This document shows, piece after piece, positions 1-15,686 of a stretch of DNA of 64,000 nucleotides; position 1 is the first letter of the stretch, and each line of letters opens with the position of its first letter. Below the pieces are notes generated by a model. The model searched no databases and was not told the origin of the DNA. It saw only the letters and a program-made list of their open reading frames with translations. The stretch is from Tieghemostelium lacteum (taxonomy: Eukaryota), in NCBI GenBank assembly GCA_001606155.1, contig LODT01000028.1, forward strand, positions 470,735 through 534,734, written 5' to 3'. The position numbers and the translations under genes were made by a program.

Positions 1-197
1 CATCTACAACAGCTGCAACAACATCTGAAACAAATACTGAAACTATAAATTTGGCAAATAACTATAGTTCTATTTACTATCTATTCAACATTCATTTATT
101 TAAATTGATTTTAAAGTAAGTTTGTTAAAAATAACCAAAATTTGGTGGTTTAATAGAGTGTTCTAACATTAATGTATATTCAAATTTTAAAAACAGA

Positions 198-1810
198 ATG
201 GAGTTTGATGATATTGTTTATCTATTAAATGATTACTATATTGAAGATGATGTTAATGGATATGATGATAATGATGATGAAGATAGTGATTATGAAAATA
301 TTGATGGTGAGGAATATATTGAAAATGTAGTAATCAATACCAATGCAATCAGTTCAGTTGTAGATGAGGATGACTATGTCTATGAACCATTTCAAACAAC
401 ATCAACAGATTTGAATGAGTTCTATCAGGACAATAAAGTCACGACTTGGTTGACAATATCCAGAAAATTAGAACCAATTATCAAAGCACTCTCTTATGAT
501 AATTTGATACAGGACACTGTTTGGGAGGATTTCTCTATTCTTGAAGATATCCAAGAGATCTCCACTCTCCTCTTCCAAAATCAAAATCTCAAAGAGATTT
601 ATGACTATTTCCCAAATTTTATCTATTTACTGCGTGATAGAATAGTTCACAAAACCACTGATATTCCATATATTTTACCAATAATTTTTAAAGTAATTCA
701 AGTTTCACCTGTAAATATAAATATACCCACTCATTATAACTACTTTGCCTAAACTAACAATATTTTAAATTTTATAAAATACAGGATGAATCCTCTGAAA
801 AACTATTAACACCATTCCAATTCAAAACTATCCTCTCCATTTTAGATAGTTTAGTTTGTATCAATAATCTACCAACTCAGTCTATTTTGGCATTAACCAA
901 ATACATATTAAAATATATGAACTATTTCCTGGATAGACTGTCATTCTGGGTAACTTTACCTAATGAACTCTTTAACCAAATCAATTCAAAATTTGAATTA
1001 GAATCTGTAAGTGTTAATAATTCTTTAATTGTATTTAATATTATGAAACTTTTATTAATATGAATTTGAATACAATTAGATATTAAATATAGTTAATTTT
1101 TATACAGAACATCCATTAAAAGAACAAGATAATGGTAACTGGAGTCAAACTATACTAAACAAGGGAATATTCTCTCAATATATGAATCTAGTTATTACTA
1201 AATTACTTGTGAACTCTGATGAAACCTCTATCAGAGCTGTTTCCATGTTTTGTTGTAAATCTGAAATGTTGAGTCATTTCATTCAAAAAGTACCTGAATT
1301 TATAGATTTGGTATTAAAGAATGAAAGATTCTCTGAGGAATTTGATCACTATCGTACCGTATGGTTCTTTATCCTATCTATACATCCTTTAAATCAATCT
1401 GATAAAGATAGTTATACAAATCAATTCAGTATGTATATTTACTGTTAACATTCCATTCACCAACATGTTCAATATCTCTAACACACATTTTATACAAATA
1501 TTTAATAGTTGATGGATTAGTAAAATCTGTTGAAAAAATTGAGTCAAAAGATAAAATTGCAATTCAAAAACTTGAAACCATCTTATCAATTCTTGTCATT
1601 TCGAAACAGAGTAATTCCAATCAATGGATATTTTCAAATGATAGCTCTCCACTACCACACCAATTATTAACATATGAAAAGAAACTCAATCATATGAAAA
1701 CTCAATTAACTTCAACCACTAACACTAGTAACGAAACCACTAATGAATTTCAAATTTTCTCTACCATTAGATCTTATCTAAAGTATCTTAGAGGCGGTGC
1801 AAACAAATAA
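198..1810 (+). CDS. Multi-exon gene for an acidic protein of unknown function. The N-terminus is Asp/Glu/Tyr-rich (MEFDDIVYLLNDYY...). Proposed exons: 198..692, 785..1006, ~1164..1428, 1509..1810.
   Basis: The ORF runs 198-752. A GTAATT donor at 693 and a ...aaatacag acceptor at 784 give an in-frame exon 785..1006 (DESSEKLLTPFQF...), with a GTAAGT donor at 1007. The ORF at 1182-1448 continues after an acceptor I could not place exactly; CAAG at 1163 keeps the frame. A GTATGT donor at 1429 and a TTTAATAG acceptor at 1508 lead to exon 4, which ends at TAA 1808-1810. Phases are consistent for this model. Confidence 0.4.
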
Positions 1811-2406
1811 ACAAGAATTCCCACCCATCAAAAGATTTTTTTTTTTTTTTTTTTTTTTACTCTTTTCAAAATGTCGGTTATTGTAAAACGTAGGCTTGAG
1901 TTCCTAATTACTGATGGAAATGAATAATGAATTGAAATTGCAATGAACAGGTTTTATTCCTCGGAAATGGGCAATAACTTTTCATCTCATTTGTATTAAA
2001 TTGAGAAATCTTTACCAAAAAATTTTTGATGATGTAATTAGGCCTTCTGTTTTAGAAACTAAGATTTTTTTTTTATTTTTTTTCTAGATTTTTTTTTACG
2101 AATCCAACAGAGTATATCATAATATTATTATATATAAAACATTTATTTTTATATATTAAAACAATTTTATATTACATTGGTCCATTCTTATATTTTGAAG
2201 AACCACACTAAATTAGAAACTTAAAAATTTTTAATTAACAAAAAAAAAAGTAATTTTCAAATTTGGGATCAATATCACACATTATAGTTAGAGATATATA
2301 TATTGAGGAAAAAATCAGAAATTAAATAGTAGTAATTAGTCAAATTTAATAGATCTTTGTGACTTTTAAAAAGGCATCAAAGAAAACAAAACAGATAGAA
2401 GACAAG

Positions 2407-3759
2407 ATGAATTATGGCATGATGAATGGTAATTTATCAATGATACCACAACAACAACATATGGAAAACGGAGTTGAGGAAGATCCTAGATTAGATTTAA
2501 TTTTACAAACCTCACCATTTGAGGAAAAAGTAACAAGAAATGGTCTACAAAAATTGATTAGGGTGGTTATTAAAAACTCACCATTTAATGTACAGCTAAA
2601 ACTTAAAAAATCTGATATAGATTTGAACCATGTTGCATTTGAATCAACACTGTTGTATGACTACGATAACAATGAAGAGAAAGAAGTGGATTTTGTTAAA
2701 TGTAAACCAGTAGAGCACAAGGCCACACCAAATGAACAGGGTGATACCATTAATGTAGAATTACGTATTAAAGTACTTACCTCCCAACACGAGGATATGT
2801 TCTTTAGAGTCAAGGTTGAAGGACAAGATCCCATCACCAAAGAGCCTATCAAAGGTTTATTTTGCCAAACCAACCCAATAAAAGTAATCAGTAAACCTGA
2901 ACAATTGAAAAAGAAACAGCCACCCAAAAAGAGAACATGGAATGACATTTTGATGGAATCTGTCTCAAAAATTCAACACCAACAAAACGAACAACAAAAA
3001 CTCATTGAAAAACTCATTGATTACAATATAAAAACACCACATAATATATTGAATGCTACCACTTTGATGGCTCAAAACGGTGGATCTGGTGGTCTGTTGA
3101 CCGCGTCTGGCAGCTCTATACTAAACAACAACAATAACAATAACAATCTAAATAGCGGAAAAACAGAATTTGAAGACTCTTTTAAACAGATGATGAATGC
3201 CTACACTCTTTTGGACCCTAGACAGAGGGCTGAAAAAGTTCGTAGAGTATTTCGTAATGCTTCTTCTAGAGACTCAGAAACTCTCTCTGAGTTACTGGAT
3301 CTTTTCATTACTGAAGGTGTTGGTGGTCCTCTTGGTACCATTGCTCCATTGCCTATATCCAACACACACGCCAACCAACAAATCACACAACAGCAACCTA
3401 TGAACATCTCTTTGAATAATAACAACAATCTCAATAGCTCACCTCTACTTCAATCACAAACATCACAACACCCACATTTACAACAACATTTACATTTACC
3501 ACAACAACAAAACACTACAACCACTAACAATAGCCTATCTCAATCAAACCAATCTCAAAACTCTGCACATCAACCCAACCCATTTTTAAATCACAACAAT
3601 CAATCACAACCTAACCAAAATCAACAAAATCAACAAAATCAAAATCAATCAAATCAAAACAGTAATGGTGAATATCCATTCTTTTCTACAATTCCAACTT
3701 CTTTTGACAATGAATTTAATTCATTTGGTAGCGGTAACAATGATTTTATTCAATTCTAG
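2407..3759 (+). CDS. Asn/Gln-rich nuclear-type protein of unknown function, with a basic KKKQPPKKR patch and long poly-N and poly-Q tracts.
   Basis: The continuous ORF is 2359-3759. The track start is GTG, and the first ATG is at 2407 (MNYGMMNGN...). Low-complexity N/Q runs are typical of dictyostelid nuclear proteins. I recognise no domain. Confidence 0.5.
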   Translation: MNYGMMNGNLSMIPQQQHMENGVEEDPRLDLILQTSPFEEKVTRNGLQKLIRVVIKNSPFNVQLKLKKSDIDLNHVAFESTLLYDYDNNEEKEVDFVKCKPVEHKATPNEQGDTINVELRIKVLTSQHEDMFFRVKVEGQDPITKEPIKGLFCQTNPIKVISKPEQLKKKQPPKKRTWNDILMESVSKIQHQQNEQQKLIEKLIDYNIKTPHNILNATTLMAQNGGSGGLLTASGSSILNNNNNNNNLNSGKTEFEDSFKQMMNAYTLLDPRQRAEKVRRVFRNASSRDSETLSELLDLFITEGVGGPLGTIAPLPISNTHANQQITQQQPMNISLNNNNNLNSSPLLQSQTSQHPHLQQHLHLPQQQNTTTTNNSLSQSNQSQNSAHQPNPFLNHNNQSQPNQNQQNQQNQNQSNQNSNGEYPFFSTIPTSFDNEFNSFGSGNNDFIQF

Positions 3760-4023
3760 ATCTCATTCATTAAAAATCAAACTCAACTATAAAAAATTCT
3801 CCAAAAATAACTGTCTCCCCTCCCCCATCTAACCTCCTTTTTTCCCCTCTCTCAAACTAAAACTTTCTCACACAATCATCTTGATGTAAAACTATATATA
3901 TAAATATTAATTGATATTGTAAATAAAAATATTAATTTTGCCAATGAATTTGAATACAACTAATATACAAAATGGTGGTGTTCTGTGGGTGTTTATTACT
4001 TTTCACTACTGTGGAGACCTACT

Positions 4024-7000
4024 CTAATAGATACCAAGTTGCTTTTTCATTTGCTCTTGTTTCCATACTTTTTGATTATCAAATTCACTCTTTGTCATTT
4101 TAAAGTGTTGGAAAAAGTCATCATCAGAAAGATATCTTTCCAATTTTGTTTTATCCAATGCTCTAGGTGGATGTTGAAGTTCATCCAAAGTATATTGTCT
4201 ATTAAGTTCACTCAAATAATCTTTGACCAAAACCATCTCTTCACAAGCTGGATTATGAATTTGAGTTTTTTGATCATTCCAACAATGGAAATATCTTCTG
4301 AATACTTTTGGTTCCAAACTGGATTGTATCAAATAACAGTTTAATAACACCTGGAAATTATCTTCACTTCCATCAACCATATTTGTTTTCTTTGCAACCA
4401 ATTGTGTATACTCCAAAACAGTGTTCATGGATTGAAGTTTTTCATCTTGTGTTGCATTTCTTCCTATCCAGAGGAAAATCATACTACCAACATCCAAAAT
4501 CATAACATCTTCATCATCAAGGTCTTGCTGGTCAAATTCAAATACTCTGTCAACTTTAAATGTACCAGATGAATACGAGCATTGATAGAGTTTTGGAGTT
4601 TGTTCTAATTTAAAACTAATAAAACTATCAGTTACCTCCTCTTCATCTTTTTCTTTAAAGAGATTAATGAATTCCAGAGGTTCTTGATCTTCCAATACCT
4701 TAATTATATCTATACCATTATACATTCTTTCAATGGTTTTATCGACTATTTCTTCAATATCTAAAATATTAGATGAGTAGTTACCTTTCCAAAGATAAAT
4801 ATTAAACACTTCCTCTTGAATTGTTGTTTTTACAATTTCATATTCTTCTTGTTGATCCTCTTCTTCTTCCTTCTTGTTTTCTTGATCACCATCAATATTA
4901 ATCTCATCGTTGTCTACATCTATAACTTGTTTTGCTGGTTTTGGTTTTACAATGAGTTCTTCTCTAACTGTATCTTTAACAGTGAACTCTTCAACCAATA
5001 TATAGTCATTGGAATTCAAATTACCAATATAGAAATCTCTAGTTACCAAAATTCTAAGATTTACATTATCACTATTATTGAAATGGTTACAAGACTTGAT
5101 ATGATACATTTTCTTATAGGGAGCTTGTTTTAGAAGTGTCTTATCATTATCCATTAAACCTTGGTGAATGGTAATACTTCCTTTGAATATTTTCATAAAA
5201 TGTACTGGCTCCTTGTTCTGAACGACACGTATCTGTTGTGCTACACCACCGATACTATCATCAAGATCAACAGTCAACAATGCGCTGGAACCCTTTTCAT
5301 TAATTGTTGATTTCTTTCCTTGCCAGAAATAAATGACATAGTGATCTTTGTTCTTTTGTTGATATTTATATAAAATTACATAACTCTCTCCATCATAAAA
5401 GTGACCATAGAGTTCGTTAGGCACAGGTTCTTTGGTGTGGTCTTTAACTCTCCATATCTGTACACTACCATTACCATCATCAATAACTCTACTGAAATAT
5501 ACAGGTGCTGGTAAACTCCATTGATCAATGATAGTCTGTGCTTTAAACTCTTCTTTCTTAACCTCTGCAACACGACCTTTTGCAATAGCCCCCATTGATA
5601 TAGGCAACGTGGAATTCCAATTAAAGAATTTTTCCTTAAACAATTCCGTCTCAGTACCTTCCGATATCTTCATTGGTTCAACCCATGCTGCTCTTCCTTT
5701 ACGTTTTTTCATAAACTCTTTAGTAAAGCTCATACAATGTTTCTTTACATTTTGATTCGACTGTTTACCAACCCATACATAAACCTCAGTCCAAGAGTCC
5801 AGAATATAGGTAAATTGATTCTGTTCCAAAAGAATCTCTTTCACCATTTTACCATTTGGATCTGGCGAAACTGCCTTTTCAGCGGATATCTCTGAACTTT
5901 CTTCAAGAAAATTCAACTGGTACAGTAAATCCTTATGTTTGATAGGTTTCTCAGAATCAGATTCTGGGATTTGTCCTGATGGTTTACCGCCTGGAATAAG
6001 AGACCAGAACTCATCTTCACCAGGTGACTTCTTGCCTTCTTCAATGACCTTTATTTGGGGTCTACCAGACCGTTCCTTGTTCTTTATACGACCTGCCAAA
6101 TCCATAGCTTTAGCAATTTGCATTTTATTTGATTTTGAACCTCTCCATTCATAGATGACAGATAAAGTGTCTAAAACATAACAGTTATTGCATCTGAATG
6201 ATTGACTTGACAACTCAACTAATCTAGGAATAATATTTTTTCTTCCGGTACATTGAATTAGTCTGAGATCAACTTGAGTATTGGTACTATTTAATTTCAT
6301 ATTCTTAAACTCTTGTAAGATGTCTTCAGATGATTGGTTTCCTTTTACACCAACAGATGCCAATAAACCAAATCCAGTGACAACTGAGCTTATATTAGTT
6401 CTAGATTTACTGTTATCAGTTGTTGTCTTGCTATTGGAATTCTGCATTGCCTTTATAGGATTAGCAGATGGCTTCTTTCTACCTGCTGGACCTATTGGTT
6501 TACTAATATTCTTTAATGTAGGTGACTGAATAGTAGTACCCATTGCAGCACCCAGAGTTGATTTAGTTTGTTGAGGTGTAGTAGTAACTTTAGAGGCAGT
6601 CTTTGTAGGAGTACTAGTTATTTTAGATGGTGTTTTAGTAATAGCTGTGCTTGTACTTTTAACAGGTGATTTTACAGCTACATTGCTACTTTTAGTTGGT
6701 GTCTTTGTAGTAGTAGCAGTAGTTTTAGCTGGAGCTTTTAATGCACTGGCACTTGTTACTGTAGTTTTTGCTGGTGTTTTAATTGAGGTTGTTGTAGCTG
6801 CCTTTGCTGGTGTTTTAGCAGTAGTGCTAGTTGTTTTAGCAGGTGTTTTAGCAATAGTACTAGTTGTTTTAGCTGGTACTTTTAAAACACTAGCAGAAGC
6901 TGATGTTGTTTTTGCTGGTGTTTTAATAGAGGTTGCTGTAGATGTTGAAGTGGTAGTAGTGGCTTTAGAAGCAGTAGTAGAAACTGCTTTACTTGGTGTT

Positions 7001-7869: not shown

Positions 7870-9547
7870 AATTGTAATTATTTTTTAATTTTATCTCCAC
7901 TCATCCAACAGTGTTAATAAAAAATATCTATCTAAATAGTTTTTTTTTAAATTATGTGGGGTGAATCTGAATGGTGAGAAAATATCCAAATAAATTTTTA
8001 TTTATGATTTATAAATACTTTTGTGTATATATATTTAAATGTATATATCTTATCTCATTGAGCAATTTAATTTTTTAATGTTCAGTTATTACAAATTAAT
8101 CTATATTATAAATTTGGGTGGGCAAGCACTAAAAATCAATTTTGAAGCTCCAACACAATCCAATTTAAAAAATGTGGATATGTCCAAATGTAAATGAAAG
8201 AATAGAATGGGAACTATTCGATTACTTTAATAGGTGTAGGTAGGAAATGAACAATGTTGTTGTCATAGGAATACCTCGATTTTAAAAGTTAAAATAGAGG
8301 TCAAAAACTCTTTTATAAAAAAACAGATATTTTAGAATAATTCCAATGATCTAATTTTTATGTGTTTATGATGAAACATTAACAAATAAAATAAACAAAT
8401 AAAAAATAAAAGAATATCGTGATCAGGCATCATAAATTCAATATTGCAATGAATCATTTAACTGCATTTTTTACCCTATCCTTCCTCAATCCGTCCTCTA
8501 AAAAATTTAAATATTTTAGTTTATGATTCATAAACTGACAAAAGGTCCACCTTGTAAAAAAAAAAAAACAAATTAAATTTTTTTAAAAATATTACAATCC
8601 TATTTAATTTATATTGAAAAGTATATTTTAAGATTTTTATTTATAAATATATATTTTATATTATCTTTCAACTGTTTTTTTTAGGGGTTACAACAGAGAA
8701 ATTAATATTAACAACACTATTGGAAAACTTAAATAGAACAATTATTCATATTGTAAAGAGAGTCTTTCAGAAAGGGTACTCTCTAATCTCAACTAGTTAA
8801 ACAACGAAATTCGAATAATTTACTACATATAGGTAAGCTTTTGATTTGATTAAGCCTTTTGAAAATTGGAATTTCATTGGTTAGTGTTGTTCAACTAAAA
8901 ACAATAATTGTGACATGTATGACAATGTGTGGGATGTTTTTGTGTGGTTATGTATTTTTTACAAGCGAACAACTTTTATATTTTGGGGTGGTTACTTTAA
9001 TATTTATATTTAAATATCTTTAATAAATTTAATTAAAATCTCTTAATGATATTTATATTCATATTATACTTGTAATGCCTTATTAATATACACTACAATT
9101 TATATAGTTATAAATGATGTTATTTGATGGGAACCACCCCTTCACCCTCACACACCAAAAAATTGAAAATTAAAGAAAGAGTGAAAAAAATAATTACAAT
9201 AATATAATTCATCTCTCATTTTGTGTTTATACTTTTTTCCAAATTCCTCCCCCCCCCCCAAAGATACCCAACAACAATGTTCGTGTTTTAATCAAACAAA
9301 CACCATCATTAATTAATTTTTTGTAATATATTAATTTATTTTTTTTCCTTACCTCTAATACCAGGACATTGGTTCTAATAACTTCTTATAATTTTTAATA
9401 TTCTTTAATTAATCTTATAATTACTTTAAAAAGCTATCTTTTTTGAAAAAAAAAATCTTACAGGTTACTCAAAGAAAAAAAAAAAAAAACAACTACAAAA
9501 GAGGTTTTTACACAGACAGTTTTAAAGTCATTAGTCATAAAGATAAA

Positions 9548-12085
9548 ATGGATTCGTCGGATATGAATAACAATTATTTGTATACTGGCAATCCAAATTA
9601 TTTTCAGGAATTCACAAATTTAGGTCTTGGTGCCAGTACGTCATCAATGTTTTTGAAACCTAATGAATTACCACCATTAAATATACAACCACAACAACTA
9701 AGTGGATATAGTATAGGAAACCAAATACCTAACCAATATTTACAGCATCAACAATCATTACAACCTATTCATTCACTTCAACCATTACAACAACAACAAC
9801 AACCACCACAACAATATAATAAGTTAGATGAGGATATATTTCATAAAGTTGATATAAAAGTACCAAATGGAACACCTACAGATTTAGATTATATAAGAAA
9901 TGTAGTATCTGTACAACAGGAGATGTTTCAAAAGAAGCTCGTTGATGCTGGTATTAATGTTTCAGACCAACAACTTCAGTTTATGTTCCAACAAGAACAA
10001 CAAAAGTATTTAAAAAAGCAACAACCACCATTACAACAACAACAGCAACAACAATATGTTCCAAATACACAATATATCCCACTACACCAATTACAGCAAA
10101 AGTATCAACCATATCCACAACAAGTTCAACCACAGCAACAACCACAACAACAACCACCACCATCACAACAACAACAACAACAACCACCAATACCACAACA
10201 AACAGTTCCCCAAGTTGTTCAACAACAAACAGTACAGAAGCAAACAGCTTCAACAACTACTTCTGCTACTAATAAGGCTAATTGTAAACCAAAGAAAACT
10301 AAACAACCAATACCGGAACCACCATTACAAGATAGTTCGGATGAAGATGATGATGATTATGACAAGTACAAAAACAAATCTAGATCCAGTCAGAATATGG
10401 CATCTAGAAATTATAGACAGAGAAAGAAGGACCATATATATGAAGTTGAGGAAAAAGTTAGAAAACTTTCTTTGGAAAATGAAAAATTGAGACAAGAAAA
10501 CTCTGTATTGAAAAAGGGTGATATGGGTGATGTTATGAAACCGGATACCGAGTTTCAAGAGGTGTTAGAAGGTAGTAATATACTGATGGCTTTACTTAGT
10601 GATGCTGTGGATAGACAGGATCTTGTGACTATTGAGTATCTATTGCAATTGTACTATTTCTCAAGTCATTTAAGATCGACTGTGGTGGAGAAGGAGGTGG
10701 AGAAGATTGTGCATCCTTATACTCAGATTAGATTAGTGTATCTAGGCTACAGATCTTCGTCGGAAGGTGCACTTTTGAAACCATTTTCCACTACATTGTG
10801 GTGGCCAAAGTTTGCAGAGGAGGTCCAACTCTCGGAAGAACAAAAACAGGCTTCGGATATCCTGTGGCATGACCATTTGAAGATTGATAAGGAACTTCGT
10901 TTGGAGAGAGATGCCCTCGATCGTGAGATTAAAGAAATATTCACAACTAAGATTATATCCTGTGGAGAGCATATGAGAGATGATAAGTATCTCTCAACTG
11001 TTCCTAAAGAAAACTATCCAACTATATCACCAAATAGTGAAATACCTTCATCACCTTCATCTAATTCCTCAAGCAGTAGCAGTAACAGTACATTTCCAAA
11101 TAGTAATAATACCAGCCCTAGTTTAGTCAATCATACCCCTCCTGAATCACCTTCGATTGCAAGTGGAGGTAGTGCATCAAGTTCGCATCAACACTATTCG
11201 CCATACCCTCTGCCTGACAGATCTGAAATCCCACTGGAGATTGTCAATGGAGGACTCGCAGGATTCAATGGCAGTACATTTGTAGGTGAAGGTAAACCTA
11301 TAGATCTCTCAGAGCTACTTGATCTCACTAGAAAACTAGAACTTTTGAAAAAGAATTTTGTCAAGCATCGTAACCTTATCTGTGACACTGATTTAGTGTT
11401 ATCTACTATACTTACACCATTCCAACATGCCAAATTGATATTAAGACTCAACAGTGTCACCAACTATGACATGTCCATTGTGGACACTGTTACTGGTATC
11501 TGGGGTACCATACACAACTACAATAACGATATCAGAGAAGGTAAATCTTTCATCTCTAAATTGCTTCCAGGAAACAATATCGAAGTCTTTGAGAATTTAA
11601 AAAAGAAATATGAACAAGATAAATTGAAAACCTATCGTTTGGAAACACTTCAACAAACCTATGAGAATCTCTATGACAAATTCTTCAAAAACAGCAAATC
11701 AGCAGCATTTGCACCCTCTGCTATATTTGCCCAATTAAACTCAAATAACAATAATAATAATAATAATTTATCTCAAAAAACTCATAATAACAACTGTACA
11801 GGAAACCAACATTCACCACCACAACCATCACATTATCAAGATCCATTATCCACACCTCCAACTATTAATATACCTCAACACCCTATTCCACTACAATCTC
11901 AAATACAATTACCACAAAATAAGACCGATTCTAATAGTAATGTAACTACAACCTCTGCAGCAACACCTACAACTACCACCAACACACCTAAAATACAACA
12001 ATCAGCTGGTGACACTACAGGTACAAACAAAAAGAAGAAACCAAAGAAATTTCAATGGTATTCTTATAAAAGCCCACAAAAGTAA
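9548..12085 (+). CDS. bZIP transcription factor with a Gln-rich N-terminus and a Ser/Asn/Thr-rich C-terminus.
   Basis: The ORF is 9443-12085 and the first in-frame ATG is at 9548 (MDSSDMNNNY). The basic region NMASRNYRQRKKDHIYEVEEKVRKLSLENEKLRQENSVLKK has an N-x2-(A/S)-x3-R-x-RKK motif followed by a heptad Leu zipper (L-x6-L-x6-L). Poly-Q tracts sit upstream. Confidence 0.7.
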   Translation: MDSSDMNNNYLYTGNPNYFQEFTNLGLGASTSSMFLKPNELPPLNIQPQQLSGYSIGNQIPNQYLQHQQSLQPIHSLQPLQQQQQPPQQYNKLDEDIFHKVDIKVPNGTPTDLDYIRNVVSVQQEMFQKKLVDAGINVSDQQLQFMFQQEQQKYLKKQQPPLQQQQQQQYVPNTQYIPLHQLQQKYQPYPQQVQPQQQPQQQPPPSQQQQQQPPIPQQTVPQVVQQQTVQKQTASTTTSATNKANCKPKKTKQPIPEPPLQDSSDEDDDDYDKYKNKSRSSQNMASRNYRQRKKDHIYEVEEKVRKLSLENEKLRQENSVLKKGDMGDVMKPDTEFQEVLEGSNILMALLSDAVDRQDLVTIEYLLQLYYFSSHLRSTVVEKEVEKIVHPYTQIRLVYLGYRSSSEGALLKPFSTTLWWPKFAEEVQLSEEQKQASDILWHDHLKIDKELRLERDALDREIKEIFTTKIISCGEHMRDDKYLSTVPKENYPTISPNSEIPSSPSSNSSSSSSNSTFPNSNNTSPSLVNHTPPESPSIASGGSASSSHQHYSPYPLPDRSEIPLEIVNGGLAGFNGSTFVGEGKPIDLSELLDLTRKLELLKKNFVKHRNLICDTDLVLSTILTPFQHAKLILRLNSVTNYDMSIVDTVTGIWGTIHNYNNDIREGKSFISKLLPGNNIEVFENLKKKYEQDKLKTYRLETLQQTYENLYDKFFKNSKSAAFAPSAIFAQLNSNNNNNNNNLSQKTHNNNCTGNQHSPPQPSHYQDPLSTPPTINIPQHPIPLQSQIQLPQNKTDSNSNVTTTSAATPTTTTNTPKIQQSAGDTTGTNKKKKPKKFQWYSYKSPQK

Positions 12086-12484: not shown

Positions 12485-13019
12485 ATGAAAGCCACAACCA
12501 TTTTAATTATTGCATTAATTGCAAGCATATTTGTCATCAACAATACTGATGGTCAACAGATTTGGGATTTCTGTACAGGAAATGTCAATGCTGTATTTGA
12601 TATTGAAAAATTAACTGTAGATCCAGATCCCCCAGTTATTGGTCAAAGTGCTACTGTCTATTTAGCTGGTACTCTCAATGAAGAGGTTACTGGTGGTACA
12701 TCCTCTATGGCTATTCAATACTTTTTTGGTGGTAGTTGGAGAGCTCTTCCAGTTTTCCACGGTGAAGTTTGTAAGATGACTACTTGCCCAGTTCCAGCTG
12801 GTCCATTCCTTTACAATTATACTTTAGATGTTCCATTTATCACACCACAGGTATGTTTTGGATAATCTAGATCTGATTCCGAATATTTATATTAATGTTT
12901 TAAACTTTTTTTTTTATTGGATACAATTACAGGGTCAATATAAAGGTGTTTTACAAGTATTTGATCAAAACAATAAGAATATTACTTGTTTGACCTTCAA
13001 TACCACCTTATCAAGATAA
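12485..13019 (+). CDS. Secreted ML-domain (MD-2-related lipid-recognition / NPC2-like) protein. Two exons: 12485..12850 and 12933..13019.
   Basis: Signal peptide MKATTILIIALIASIFVINN. The Ig-like beta-sandwich pattern has 4-6 Cys (DFCTGN..., EVCKMTTCPVPAG..., ITCLTF), typical of Der p2/NPC2 ML domains. A GTATGT donor at 12851 and a ...attacag acceptor at 12932 (82-nt intron) keep the frame, and the CDS ends at TAA 13017-13019. Confidence 0.6.
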
Positions 13020-13178: not shown

Positions 13179-14191
13179 TTAGATGTATCTTTTATATCGA
13201 TTTGGTAATACTCTTAAGAGTAAATAATGAATAATTGCAATCAAAAACAGCATTGGAATGATTGGTAGTTTCAATAGAGATGCTACCAATGCACCCACAC
13301 CAAATATCAAAATGTTTTTGGTGATTCTCACATGGTCCTTTTTAGGTTTACCTTTGACATAGATAAAATTAAATGAGCTTCCAAATGACATTTCTAAGTT
13401 CAAGTCAATAATCGATTGAAGATCTGACGTCAACTTGTCACTGAGTTGTTTAGAATCTATTAGTCTTTGGTAGGTTATTAGACAGGCTCTACGAATTTCC
13501 TGATTGAGTGTGGTTATATTCTTTCCAGGTGTATAATCACTATCTCTTATTCTATCTAAAATCTGTTTAGTTAGAAACCCAATTGGTTTCTCATCATCGT
13601 AATTGACGCCTATTGGTAGACCTACTAGGAACTGTGTATCCCTATACCTATCCAATAGATGAGCTAAAATCTTATTATATTCCTCTGAAACTGGTTTTTT
13701 TAATTTAAACTGATCTTGAAAACAATCTAAAATACATATATTCTTGAATTGATAGTTTGGATCTTCTTCTGATAATTTAATTTGTTTATCTGTGATTCTA
13801 CTAAATATTGATGATATACTAATAAAGTGGCCATCTTGACACTCTATAAAAAACTCCTCTGCAGTTCCAAAATTTATATTAATACTCTTATTTACAATAA
13901 CAAATCTCCAATTATATGATGATAAATACGTTTATTATAATATCCTCTTCCGGAGAAAAAAAATAGTAGATCTTGATTTGGTTCAATTTTATCAACAATA
14001 TCATTTATTATTTGATTCATTTTTGATTTATCACAATCTGAATATCTGAATAATCTTCCAAATGAACAATAATCTTTTAAAATTGATGTAAATGCCTCAA
14101 CATCATTTAAATGTGAACCCCTTTCTTTATATGAATTTCCAATAAGAAATCCAATTCTTTTATTATCCCTAATCATTGTTGATCTTTGCAT
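13179..14191 (-). CDS. Caspase-fold (metacaspase/paracaspase-like) protein. The catalytic His is replaced (FFFSGRG instead of SGHG), the Cys-region motif is modified (ILDCFQD), and there is a C-terminal transmembrane segment. Two exons: 13930..14191 and 13179..13858.
   Basis: The N-terminus KRIGFLIGNSYKERGSHLNDVEAFTSILKDY...LLFFFSGRGYYNK follows the metacaspase p20 pattern (KRALLIGINY...L.GCINDV...L...GF.......D.LFFHYSGHG). A GTATTT donor at 13929 and a CTGCAG acceptor at 13859 (71-nt intron, phase 1) join to ...QEFFIECQDGHFIS...KNICILDCFQD..., and the protein ends with the hydrophobic stretch ILIFGVGALVASLLKLPIIPMLFLIAIIHYLL. Confidence 0.55.
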
Positions 14192-14581
14192 TTGTTTCCT
14201 TATCTATATAAATGTGTGTTATAAAGTGAAAATGAACATTAAACTAAAAAAATTTTTTAATTTTATTCATTTACACATTATTGTGTTATATATAAAGTAA
14301 CATCATAACAATTTCAATTTTAATTAATCTATAAATTTTAATATAATTCTAATTTCATTACATTTGACTCAATTATGTAATTAAATAAAGAAACATTTAG
14401 GTTACTATTTGTTATTTTGATTAAATTATGATATTTTGTAATTTGAAACAAGAGGTAACAGAATAAAATGAAATTTTATTTTTTTTGAATTAAATTTGAA
14501 AAAATTTTTGGACCTGATTTTTTTTTTGATTCTCTTTCGTTTATTGCGAGTTTTTGTTTAATCCACATATAACCAGAAATA

Positions 14582-15024
14582 ATGTCAACCACCGTTAAAG
14601 TAGCCAAAAGATCTGGTATTGCAACTGGTAACAACTCCGGTCACGCAGTCACCAAAAGAGTACCAAAATCAACCTTCAAAAAGGGTGTATGTATAGGATT
14701 TAGGATTGGAGGGTTGGATTAGATTAGAATAGGATATTAATCACATTACACATAGCTCGTCACAAAGAGAGTTGAAGTCATCCGTGATGTCGTCCGTGAA
14801 GTTTCTGGATATGCTCCATACGAACGTAGAATTCAAGAACTTTTGAAATCATCTTTAGATAAGAGAGCTCTTAAAATCGCCAAAAAGAGAGTAATTATCA
14901 TAGTATTATTTATTATATATTAAGTTACTAATATATTTTTTTTTCATAATTATAGCTCGGTTCCATCAGAGCTGGTAAAAAGAAGAGAGATGAAATGCAA
15001 ACTGCCAACAAGAAATTTAAATAA
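14582..15024 (+). CDS. rpl36: 60S ribosomal protein L36e. Three exons: 14582..14686, 14756..14890, 14956..15024.
   Basis: Exon 1 is [35 protein letters not shown]. Exon 2 is [45 protein letters not shown]. Exon 3 is [22 protein letters not shown]. This is the L36e family signature order. Introns run GTATGT...ATAG (69 nt) and GTAATT...TATAG (65 nt), both phase 0. Confidence 0.85.
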
Positions 15025-15686
15025 ATATATACACCAACTACACTCTACAATTCACCTCAATTCAAAAGTATAATAGTTTTTAGTATAGGAAAGAGAAAGG
15101 CTTTATCAATTCCTTTTTTTAAATATAAACTACAATATTACTCTACAGATTATACTATAAAATATATTTTCATGGTATATTTACCCCTATACCCTCTTTT
15201 GAAATGTGAAAAAAAGGGGTATAGATCGAGTATAATGTGAGAGAATACTAACATAAAACATTTTATGTGGGCTGATTTTGAGTAAAAAACAAAATGTATA
15301 CTGTACCCCCTTCAATGATATTCACGTCAATTTTTAATTTATGTGATGTGTTTAATAAAAAATAATTGTGGGGGAGGTGTAATTTTTTACTGTTTATATA
15401 TAACAAGTCATTTAAATAAAAATTTATTAACAGAATGAGTATATATTTCCTCTCTACCCCTCTTTTTATCTTTGTGTTTGAGGTATTACCCTATTAAATT
15501 CAACACAAAAACAACAACAATAACAAAAAATAAATTAAAATACATGTATATACTACATTTTCTCTTTTAATTTTAATTTTACTTTAATTCTCTTTACCCT
15601 TTAGATTTAAAATCAAATAATTCTCTATCTATTCAATTTTTATTTTAATTATTTATATATATATTATTTAAATTTATAGTAGTAAA

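Follow-up and report, generated by a model that had tools for sequence, protein, structure and literature searches.

Dyad-dead members of peptidase family C14 are common, and in Trypanosoma brucei one of them, MCA4, works with MCA3. MCA4 is an inactive, membrane-associated metacaspase homolog of biological importance, and MCA1 of the same organism lacks both dyad residues (PMC3220528); pseudo-orthocaspases account for 8.6% of bacterial caspase homologs (PMC6426788). In the human pseudo-caspase FLIP(L), the catalytic His is replaced by Arg315 and the Cys by Tyr360, and the protein acts by pairing with caspase-8 (PMC7586951). Among proteins with the dyad in place, the MALT1-type paracaspase (MEROPS C14B; PDB 3V4O, 3UOA) uses His415 and Cys464 for catalysis (PMC12953060) and anchors the P1 arginine of its substrates through Asp365, Asp462, and Glu500 (PMC4626109). 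Here, we describe a two-exon gene on the minus strand (14191..13179) of a 64,000-nucleotide stretch of Tieghemostelium lacteum contig LODT01000028.1; this stretch, called the window below, supplies all coordinates for the gene and its neighbors. A protein search identified the gene as DLAC_05582, annotated as a hypothetical protein. Its 313-amino-acid product is, in our judgment, likely to be a cytosol-facing, membrane-tethered pseudo-protease with a complete paracaspase-type domain, an interpretation that rests on sequence comparison.

Catalytic dyad and S1 pocket

The features of the gene on which the argument depends are as follows.

13179..14191, minus strand: whole gene, with the ATG at 14191..14189 and the stop codon TAA at 13181..13179; equivalent to DLAC_05582 with a longer, corrected N terminus
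13930..14191, minus strand: exon 1, 262 nucleotides (nt), residues 1 to 87 and the first base of codon 88; encodes beta1 (RIGFLIGN), alpha1 with Asp30, beta2, alpha2, and beta3, which ends in SGRG
13859..13929, minus strand: intron, 71 nt, GTATTT...CTGCAG, phase 1, GC content 0.225
13179..13858, minus strand: exon 2, residues 88 to 313 and the stop codon; encodes the remainder of the p20-like half, followed by the p10-like half, a linker of helical character, and the hydrophobic anchor
13473..14173 including the intron, minus strand: complete caspase/paracaspase-like domain, residues ~7 to 216, delimited by Pfam (residues 13 to 137), hhalign, and a homolog hidden Markov model (HMM)
14102..14104, minus strand: codon of Asp30, at the position of MALT1 Asp365 in the S1 pocket
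13946..13948, minus strand: codon AGA of Arg82, in the catalytic His column (MALT1 His415)
13719..13727, minus strand: codons GAT TGT TTT of Asp132, Cys133, and Phe134, equivalent to MALT1 Asp462 (S1 pocket), Met463 (x position), and Cys464 (nucleophile)
13596..13598, minus strand: codon of Asp175, at the position of MALT1 Glu500, in the S1 pocket and the p10-like half
13206..13316, minus strand: predicted hydrophobic anchor, residues 269 to 305, NILIFGVGALVASLL-KLP-IIPMLFLIAIIHYLLLRVL, followed by the basic tail PNRYKRYI (8 residues)

As read from the alignments, both residues of the catalytic dyad are lost in the T. lacteum protein, the His having been replaced by Arg82 and the Cys by Phe134. 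Column counts were taken from a reference set of 41 homologs, whose HMM was built with the query excluded. Arg82, in the motif SGRG (residues 80 to 83), stands in the catalytic His column, which holds His in 41/41 homologs; the placement carries the maximal posterior probability (*) and is consistent across all alignments. A first-pass annotation of the window had taken SGRG for a His-to-Arg substitution, and the alignments bear this out, with no conventional His aligned to the dyad position from elsewhere in the protein. The only nearby His, His98, was considered as a displaced dyad His and rejected, its column being nonconserved and often gapped. All three bases of AGA would have to change to give a His codon, so sequencing error does not explain Arg82.

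The same annotation had regarded the Cys of ILDCFQD (residues 130 to 136) as the retained nucleophile, which proved to be a reading one position out of register. Within D-x-C, Cys133 takes the variable x position, held by Met463 in MALT1 and by Ala in several relatives; the nucleophile column, with Cys in 37/41 homologs, holds Phe134 (posterior probability, 9). Relatives read LDACRN, LDCCR, LDCCHSG, or LDACHSG, the nucleophile always being the second residue past the Asp at the end of the strand, and when the family motif LDCCR is aligned to MALT1 LDMC464RK, its second Cys falls on Cys464. The 49-residue spacing between His415 and Cys464 was reproduced by count through the 3V4O alignment, and the dyad register was obtained independently with MAFFT. 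The Phe134 codon, TTT, is a single substitution from TGT, which suggests that the ancestor of the query motif was of the LDCC type. The Cys at the x position (in the query, Cys133, encoded at 13722-13724) is itself invariant in the nearest family of homologs, a group of rotifer-like proteins (38/38), and is kept there even by members without the nucleophile Cys (P0041, P0084, and P0107).

All three positions of the S1 pocket are acidic, so that the binding pocket appears to be kept while the chemistry is lost. Asp30 was placed identically in three alignments, with maximal posterior probability, in a column made up of Asp (24), Asn (16), and Glu (1) among the 41 homologs. Asp132, at the Asp462 position, was also placed with maximal posterior probability. 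Asp175, in the p10-like half, has a posterior probability of 8, and its column is acidic in 16 of the 24 homologs that have this half. With Arg82 and Phe134 in the dyad columns, the alignments argue for membership in the caspase fold and against membership among the active peptidases, and a caspase fold with a substituted dyad is what defines a pseudo-protease. The first-pass annotation had left open whether the protein was a pseudo-protease or a protease with an altered mechanism; since the nucleophile Cys is also lost, with Phe134 in its column, the former is favored and the latter becomes much less likely.

Family placement and comparison with known systems

A Pfam scan of the 313-residue protein found Peptidase_C14 (PF00656) as its sole domain, and the match, at residues 13 to 137, is significant (38.5 bits, E = 1.3e-9, against a gathering cutoff of 21.4 bits), in line with the caspase fold first proposed for it. 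Comparison by hhalign with the nearest family gave a probability of 96.2% (E = 2.2e-9) for the p20 half and, with full-length family members, a probability of 93.3% (E = 2.7e-7) over residues 7 to 211. The latter alignment takes in the p10-like half, in which query GFLTKQIL is matched with family GLFTKHLL and NITTLNQEI with DITQIFRSV. The HMM of the 41 homologs scored the query at 53.4 bits over residues 4 to 216, and the sequence leaves the family pattern after approximately residues 211 to 216.

The nearest family consists of rotifer-like proteins labeled "Caspase family p20 domain-containing," which are ~20 to 23% identical to the query. A profile of this family matched the whole MALT1 paracaspase domain among PDB entries (E = 6.7e-23), and the nearest-family profile gave E values of 4e-19 for MALT1 versus 5.7e-4 for yeast metacaspase, with caspases far weaker too. 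Together with the Cys box, which reads LDCFQD and not the DSCHSG type, and with the lack of type I prodomain or type II linker features in the Pfam scan, these values identify the domain, on sequence criteria, as single chain and paracaspase-like (C14B), with p20- and p10-like halves, and not specifically as a metacaspase. The first description of the p20-like region as following the metacaspase pattern closely is thereby superseded, since the nearest relatives and their best solved homolog are MALT1-type paracaspase domains. The affinity of the query to MALT1 is transitive, through the nearest family, and the predicted acidic S1 pocket for P1-Arg is a paracaspase trait. A direct phmmer search of the PDB with the query returned nothing relevant, and NCBIfam and PADLOC profiles gave matches only at the level of noise. 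Pfam detected neither death domains nor Ig-like domains flanking the caspase-like domain, so that the protein is at most a domain-only paracaspase-like protein.

Relatives of the query itself are scarce. A word-index search with the query recovered only its own annotated record, and two such searches in all found no close relative. When 1.84 billion cluster representatives were searched exhaustively with HMMER, using a profile of 256 positions that had lost the N-terminal columns, one weak match was added, the bdelloid rotifer protein P0002 (E = 2.8e-4). A scan of metagenome contig DNA found no relatives, and the window contains no paralog. Thus, neither an ortholog nor a paralog was detected by word-index, exhaustive HMMER, or metagenome DNA searches, which did not extend to the dictyostelid genomes themselves.

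Compared with MALT1, whose whole domain is the closest match to the nearest family among solved structures, the T. lacteum protein has the same single-chain layout of p20 and p10-like halves, and MALT1 Asp365, Asp462, and Glu500 are kept acidic as Asp30, Asp132, and Asp175. The motifs are alike in style (GHGY type in MALT1 versus SGRGY, and LDMCRK type versus LDCFQD). Unlike in MALT1, the dyad is replaced by Arg82 and Phe134. The query also lacks the death domain and Ig domains of MALT1 and has a C-terminal anchor in place of Ig3.

The rotifer-like family (P0002, P0020, P0089, P0094, P0118, and others; 250 to 298 amino acids [aa], with LDCCR), the source of the only nonself match, has in common with the query a short N-terminal leader, the Cys after the strand-end Asp, and the GLFTKHLL- and DITQIF-type helices. 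Some of its members (P0090, P0107, P0041, and P0084) are also degenerate at the dyad; nearly all members, unlike the query, retain the His and the nucleophile Cys. The family has no conserved membrane anchor and occurs in tandem arrays; the query has an anchor and is a singleton. The P0002 family is labeled in databases as "uncharacterized caspase-like proteins" of ~155 aa, in contrast to the 250 to 298 aa of its well-annotated members. On a 91.6-kb contig of ENA ERZ25069412 (L001), which is probably bdelloid rotifer-like, positions 1-6500 carry C14 open reading frames (ORFs) in a tandem array near a mariner-type transposase, and each is followed, past an intron of ~45 to 50 nt that begins with GTAAGT, by an ORF for a p10-like half. 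The "p20-only" form of ~155 aa, frequent among metagenome proteins, is therefore an artifact of split gene calls.

FLIP(L) offers a close parallel at the dyad, for its Arg315 and Tyr360 and the query's Arg82 and Phe134 are both a combination of Arg with an aromatic residue. FLIP(L) forms heterodimers with an active paralog and so provides a working analogy for the query; it differs in being a soluble C14A protein, a paralog of caspase-8, with death-effector domains. The likeness is likely convergent, as we saw no sign of common descent of the substitutions. T. brucei MCA4 and MCA1 and the pseudo-orthocaspases resemble the query in having C14B-type domains with dyad substitutions. MCA4, however, keeps the His, has Ser in place of Cys (its S219C mutant is active, which points to an intact scaffold), and is tethered by acylation rather than by a transmembrane segment, and the pseudo-orthocaspases mostly have Tyr and Ser and lack a p10 half. 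The combination of an Arg/Phe pair with a C-terminal transmembrane anchor occurs in none of these. The query is thus an addition to a known class of caspase-fold pseudo-enzymes, for which its C-terminal anchor is unusual.

Predicted membrane anchor and proposed function

The C-terminal 100 residues comprise a predicted helical linker, which joins the domain (after approximately residue 216) to the anchor, and the anchor itself. The anchor is 37 residues long, reaches 2.43 in a 19-residue Kyte-Doolittle window, ends 8 residues before the C terminus, and is the sole strongly hydrophobic region of the protein. There is no signal-like hydrophobic segment at the N terminus, which is formed by beta1 of the fold. 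No signal and a single hydrophobic region near the C terminus are the features of a tail-anchored protein, and the stretch is accordingly a predicted anchor; because the N terminus is a strand of the fold, with no signal segment, the caspase-like domain should face the cytosol. The protein had originally been predicted to end in a transmembrane helix. The hydrophobic stretch is there, but the K-L-P break within it would suit two arrangements, a helical hairpin or one membrane span next to a hydrophobic juxtamembrane helix.

AlphaFold2 (AF2) models were made only of the publicly annotated protein (P0001), which is truncated at the N terminus and lacks the first two core strands. In both runs, two helices were predicted at the anchor (residues 262 to 283 and 287 to 304 of the full-length protein; pLDDT, 62 to 76). 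The models were otherwise weak, with a pLDDT of 53 for the sequence alone and of 60.5 (pTM, 0.38) with a 42-sequence alignment. For the weak truncated model, the top two Foldseek matches were both to MALT1, at E values of only 0.5 and 1.3.

Membrane-tethered caspase domains are a recurrent architecture. A set of proteins of ~460 to 540 aa (P0159-P0176), of which those with names are actinobacterial "caspase family proteins" (e.g., of Actinoplanes and Jidongwangia), have a strong transmembrane helix that lies ~270 to 340 residues from the start and leaves a C-terminal region of ~175 to 205 residues behind it. In the rotifer-like array on L001, one member (2527-2973 of that contig, minus strand) has a hydrophobic tail of 20 residues, GVALTFLVSGVLFNLLYCFLL, situated 14 residues before its C terminus; its paralogs read ...HHRTCSMRSSYIND at this point, and the tail looks like a one-off derived from a frameshift. 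A tail anchor common to the query and the rotifer-like family was therefore rejected, as only this one array member has such a tail and it is an apparent frameshift product.

Lacking a thiolate-imidazolium pair, the T. lacteum protein would be incapable of canonical clan-CD proteolysis. The groove and acidic pocket that appear to be retained would allow it to bind basic (Arg/Lys) peptides, and the fold used for caspase-fold dimerization would also be kept. Held at the membrane by its tail, the protein might bind a partner or substrate with a basic motif without cleaving it; alternatively, it might pair with an active paracaspase-type enzyme of the amoeba and serve as a decoy, scaffold, or regulator. 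By analogy with the systems above, membrane-side binding of a partner or pairing with an active enzyme seems the most likely role.

If the gene is expressed and functional, its product would be the first eukaryotic pseudo-enzyme of the paracaspase-like type to be described with a C-terminal membrane anchor of its own, and the dyad would be an independent instance of the FLIP(L)-style change of His to Arg and of Cys to an aromatic residue. The role of dictyostelid paracaspase is obscure, developmental cell death being independent of it; a tethered dead paralog with an Arg-binding pocket, if it is one, would give a handle on what the dictyostelid paracaspase system binds. The significance is limited by the lack of a detectable ortholog, by the frequency of dyad-dead proteins in C14, and by a function that is predicted only.

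Several observations weigh against a pseudo-protease that is functional at the membrane. With no ortholog or paralog detected, purifying selection is not demonstrable, which leaves room for a functionless relic. Cys133 abuts the nucleophile position, and the odd invariance of the x-position Cys in the nearest family leaves a slim chance of residual or unusual chemistry. Support from structure prediction is poor, the AF2 models of the truncated protein being weak and the Foldseek match to MALT1 nonsignificant. Expression is putative, and the gene goes unmentioned in the supplements of the transcriptome paper on dictyostelids. Finally, an active paracaspase partner is known from the literature alone, and for Dictyostelium discoideum, which has a paracaspase, rather than for T. 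lacteum (PMC2064784).

As a functionless relic, the gene would be a lineage-specific, decaying paracaspase-like copy whose frame is still open and perhaps transcribed, with no selection on activity or binding. We consider this unlikely. Decay would account for a near-orphan with one weak nonself match and no dictyostelid relative by word-index searches nor any relative in the metagenome scan, for the loss of both catalytic residues, and for the departure of the C-terminal part of the fold from the family pattern past approximately residue 211. The GC content of the coding sequence (0.29) is also lower than that of all 13 reference ORFs of the window (0.31 to 0.39). However, at 71% AT, a frame of 313 codons that stays open across a correctly phased intron is hard to reconcile with decay: none of 20,000 composition-preserving shuffles was open (P, ~4e-13), and the off-frames of the gene contain 30 and 38 stops. 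The likeness of its codon usage to that of neighboring genes (r = 0.79) is not discriminating, as an off-frame gives 0.81. The pattern of the hydrophobic core and the three acidic S1 residues are kept at high posterior probability, the transmembrane tail is clean and has a basic C-terminal end, and loss of the dyad is by itself typical of functional pseudo-enzymes.

A second alternative, which we regard as very unlikely, is an active protease with a shifted center, in which Cys133 is the nucleophile and the base is something other than the canonical His, such as His98 or Arg82 in an unusual environment. The position of Cys133 next to that of the nucleophile, the retention of the x-position Cys in the nearest family described above, and the intact S1 pocket would suit such an enzyme, and for metacaspases, other Cys residues have been discussed as possible nucleophiles (PMC3220528). 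In the same work, however, TbMCA4 is already inactive with a single Cys-to-Ser change (PMC3220528), and FLIP(L), with an Arg and aromatic pair like that of the query, is inactive (PMC7586951). The x position, being Met in MALT1 and Ala in other relatives, is not generally catalytic, and the His98 column is nonconserved. To our knowledge, no clan-CD enzyme works without the dyad His. A broader version, to which we give very little credence, would make Cys133 a working nucleophile or a redox switch, and the protein a membrane-bound caspase-fold enzyme that does without the His-Cys dyad and is steered to Arg/Lys sites by its S1 pocket.

Gene model and neighboring genes

The frame that opens at the ATG at 14191 ends within the intron, and removal of the 71 nt joins it to the TAA at 13181..13179 as 313 codons. 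Several other GT...AG pairs also give an open frame; the rival models compared used the GTATTT donor with introns of 86, 95, or 140 nt or a GTAAAT donor with a 77-nt intron. None was retained, as the other in-frame models scored 34.9 and 30.0 bits against Peptidase_C14 or, in two cases, had no match, leaving the chosen model with the top score. The public annotation of DLAC_05582 has the identical splice junction. The exon model of the first-pass annotation, derived by hand, therefore stands, and so do the start and stop codons that it assigned on the minus strand, its start being better than the public one.

The public protein begins at the internal Met58 and omits the first 57 residues (window 14020-14191, minus strand), which form the first strands and a helix of the caspase fold. 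Started at Met58, the protein scores 18.0 bits against Peptidase_C14, below the gathering cutoff, and databases consequently list no domain for DLAC_05582. The upstream start is supported by three observations: no start codon lies between the preceding in-frame stop and the ATG at 14191, exon 1 by itself scores 29.6 bits against Peptidase_C14, and the 11-residue leader before beta1 agrees with that of homologs. DLAC_05582 should thus begin 57 codons upstream and is then recognizable as a protein with the Peptidase_C14 fold; this correction of the start codon is the practical outcome of the analysis.

That a wrong gene model conceals a canonical dyad, or that the caspase-like resemblance is due to chance, is barely conceivable: the exons were set by hand, the splice was predicted from sequence, and other in-frame GT...AG pairs exist, but AGA sits in exon 1, ahead of every candidate intron, nearly all candidate introns come before the D-C-F codons, both sites are the same in all splice variants, the chosen model scores best and agrees with an independent annotation, AGA is three substitutions from CAY, and four independent alignment methods support the family.

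The window is AT rich, with a eukaryotic composition, and the neighbors of the gene encode an ML-domain protein, a bZIP factor, a ribosomal L36e-like protein, a thioredoxin-domain protein, and an Arf GTPase. This context of unrelated, housekeeping-type genes adds nothing on function. The nearest features are as follows.

12485-13019, plus strand: gene of two exons whose product is a secreted protein with an ML (MD-2-related lipid-recognition) domain (Pfam E = 2.6e-19)
14192..14581, no strand: intergenic region of 390 nt, GC content 0.18, between the caspase-like gene and the divergent L36e-like gene
14582-15025, plus strand: gene for a ribosomal L36e-like protein, interrupted by two short introns and identified by eye only
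9443-12085, plus strand: long ORF rich in poly-Q and poly-N, with a bZIP domain (bZIP_2; E = 9.8e-6)

The ML-domain gene is convergent with the caspase-like gene, their 3' ends lying 160 nt apart. Pfam gave no match for the 35-residue first exon of the L36e-like gene. On the other side of the caspase-like gene, the region at 14192..14581 is probably a promoter region common to both divergent genes, and the product of the ORF at 9443-12085 is probably a transcription factor.

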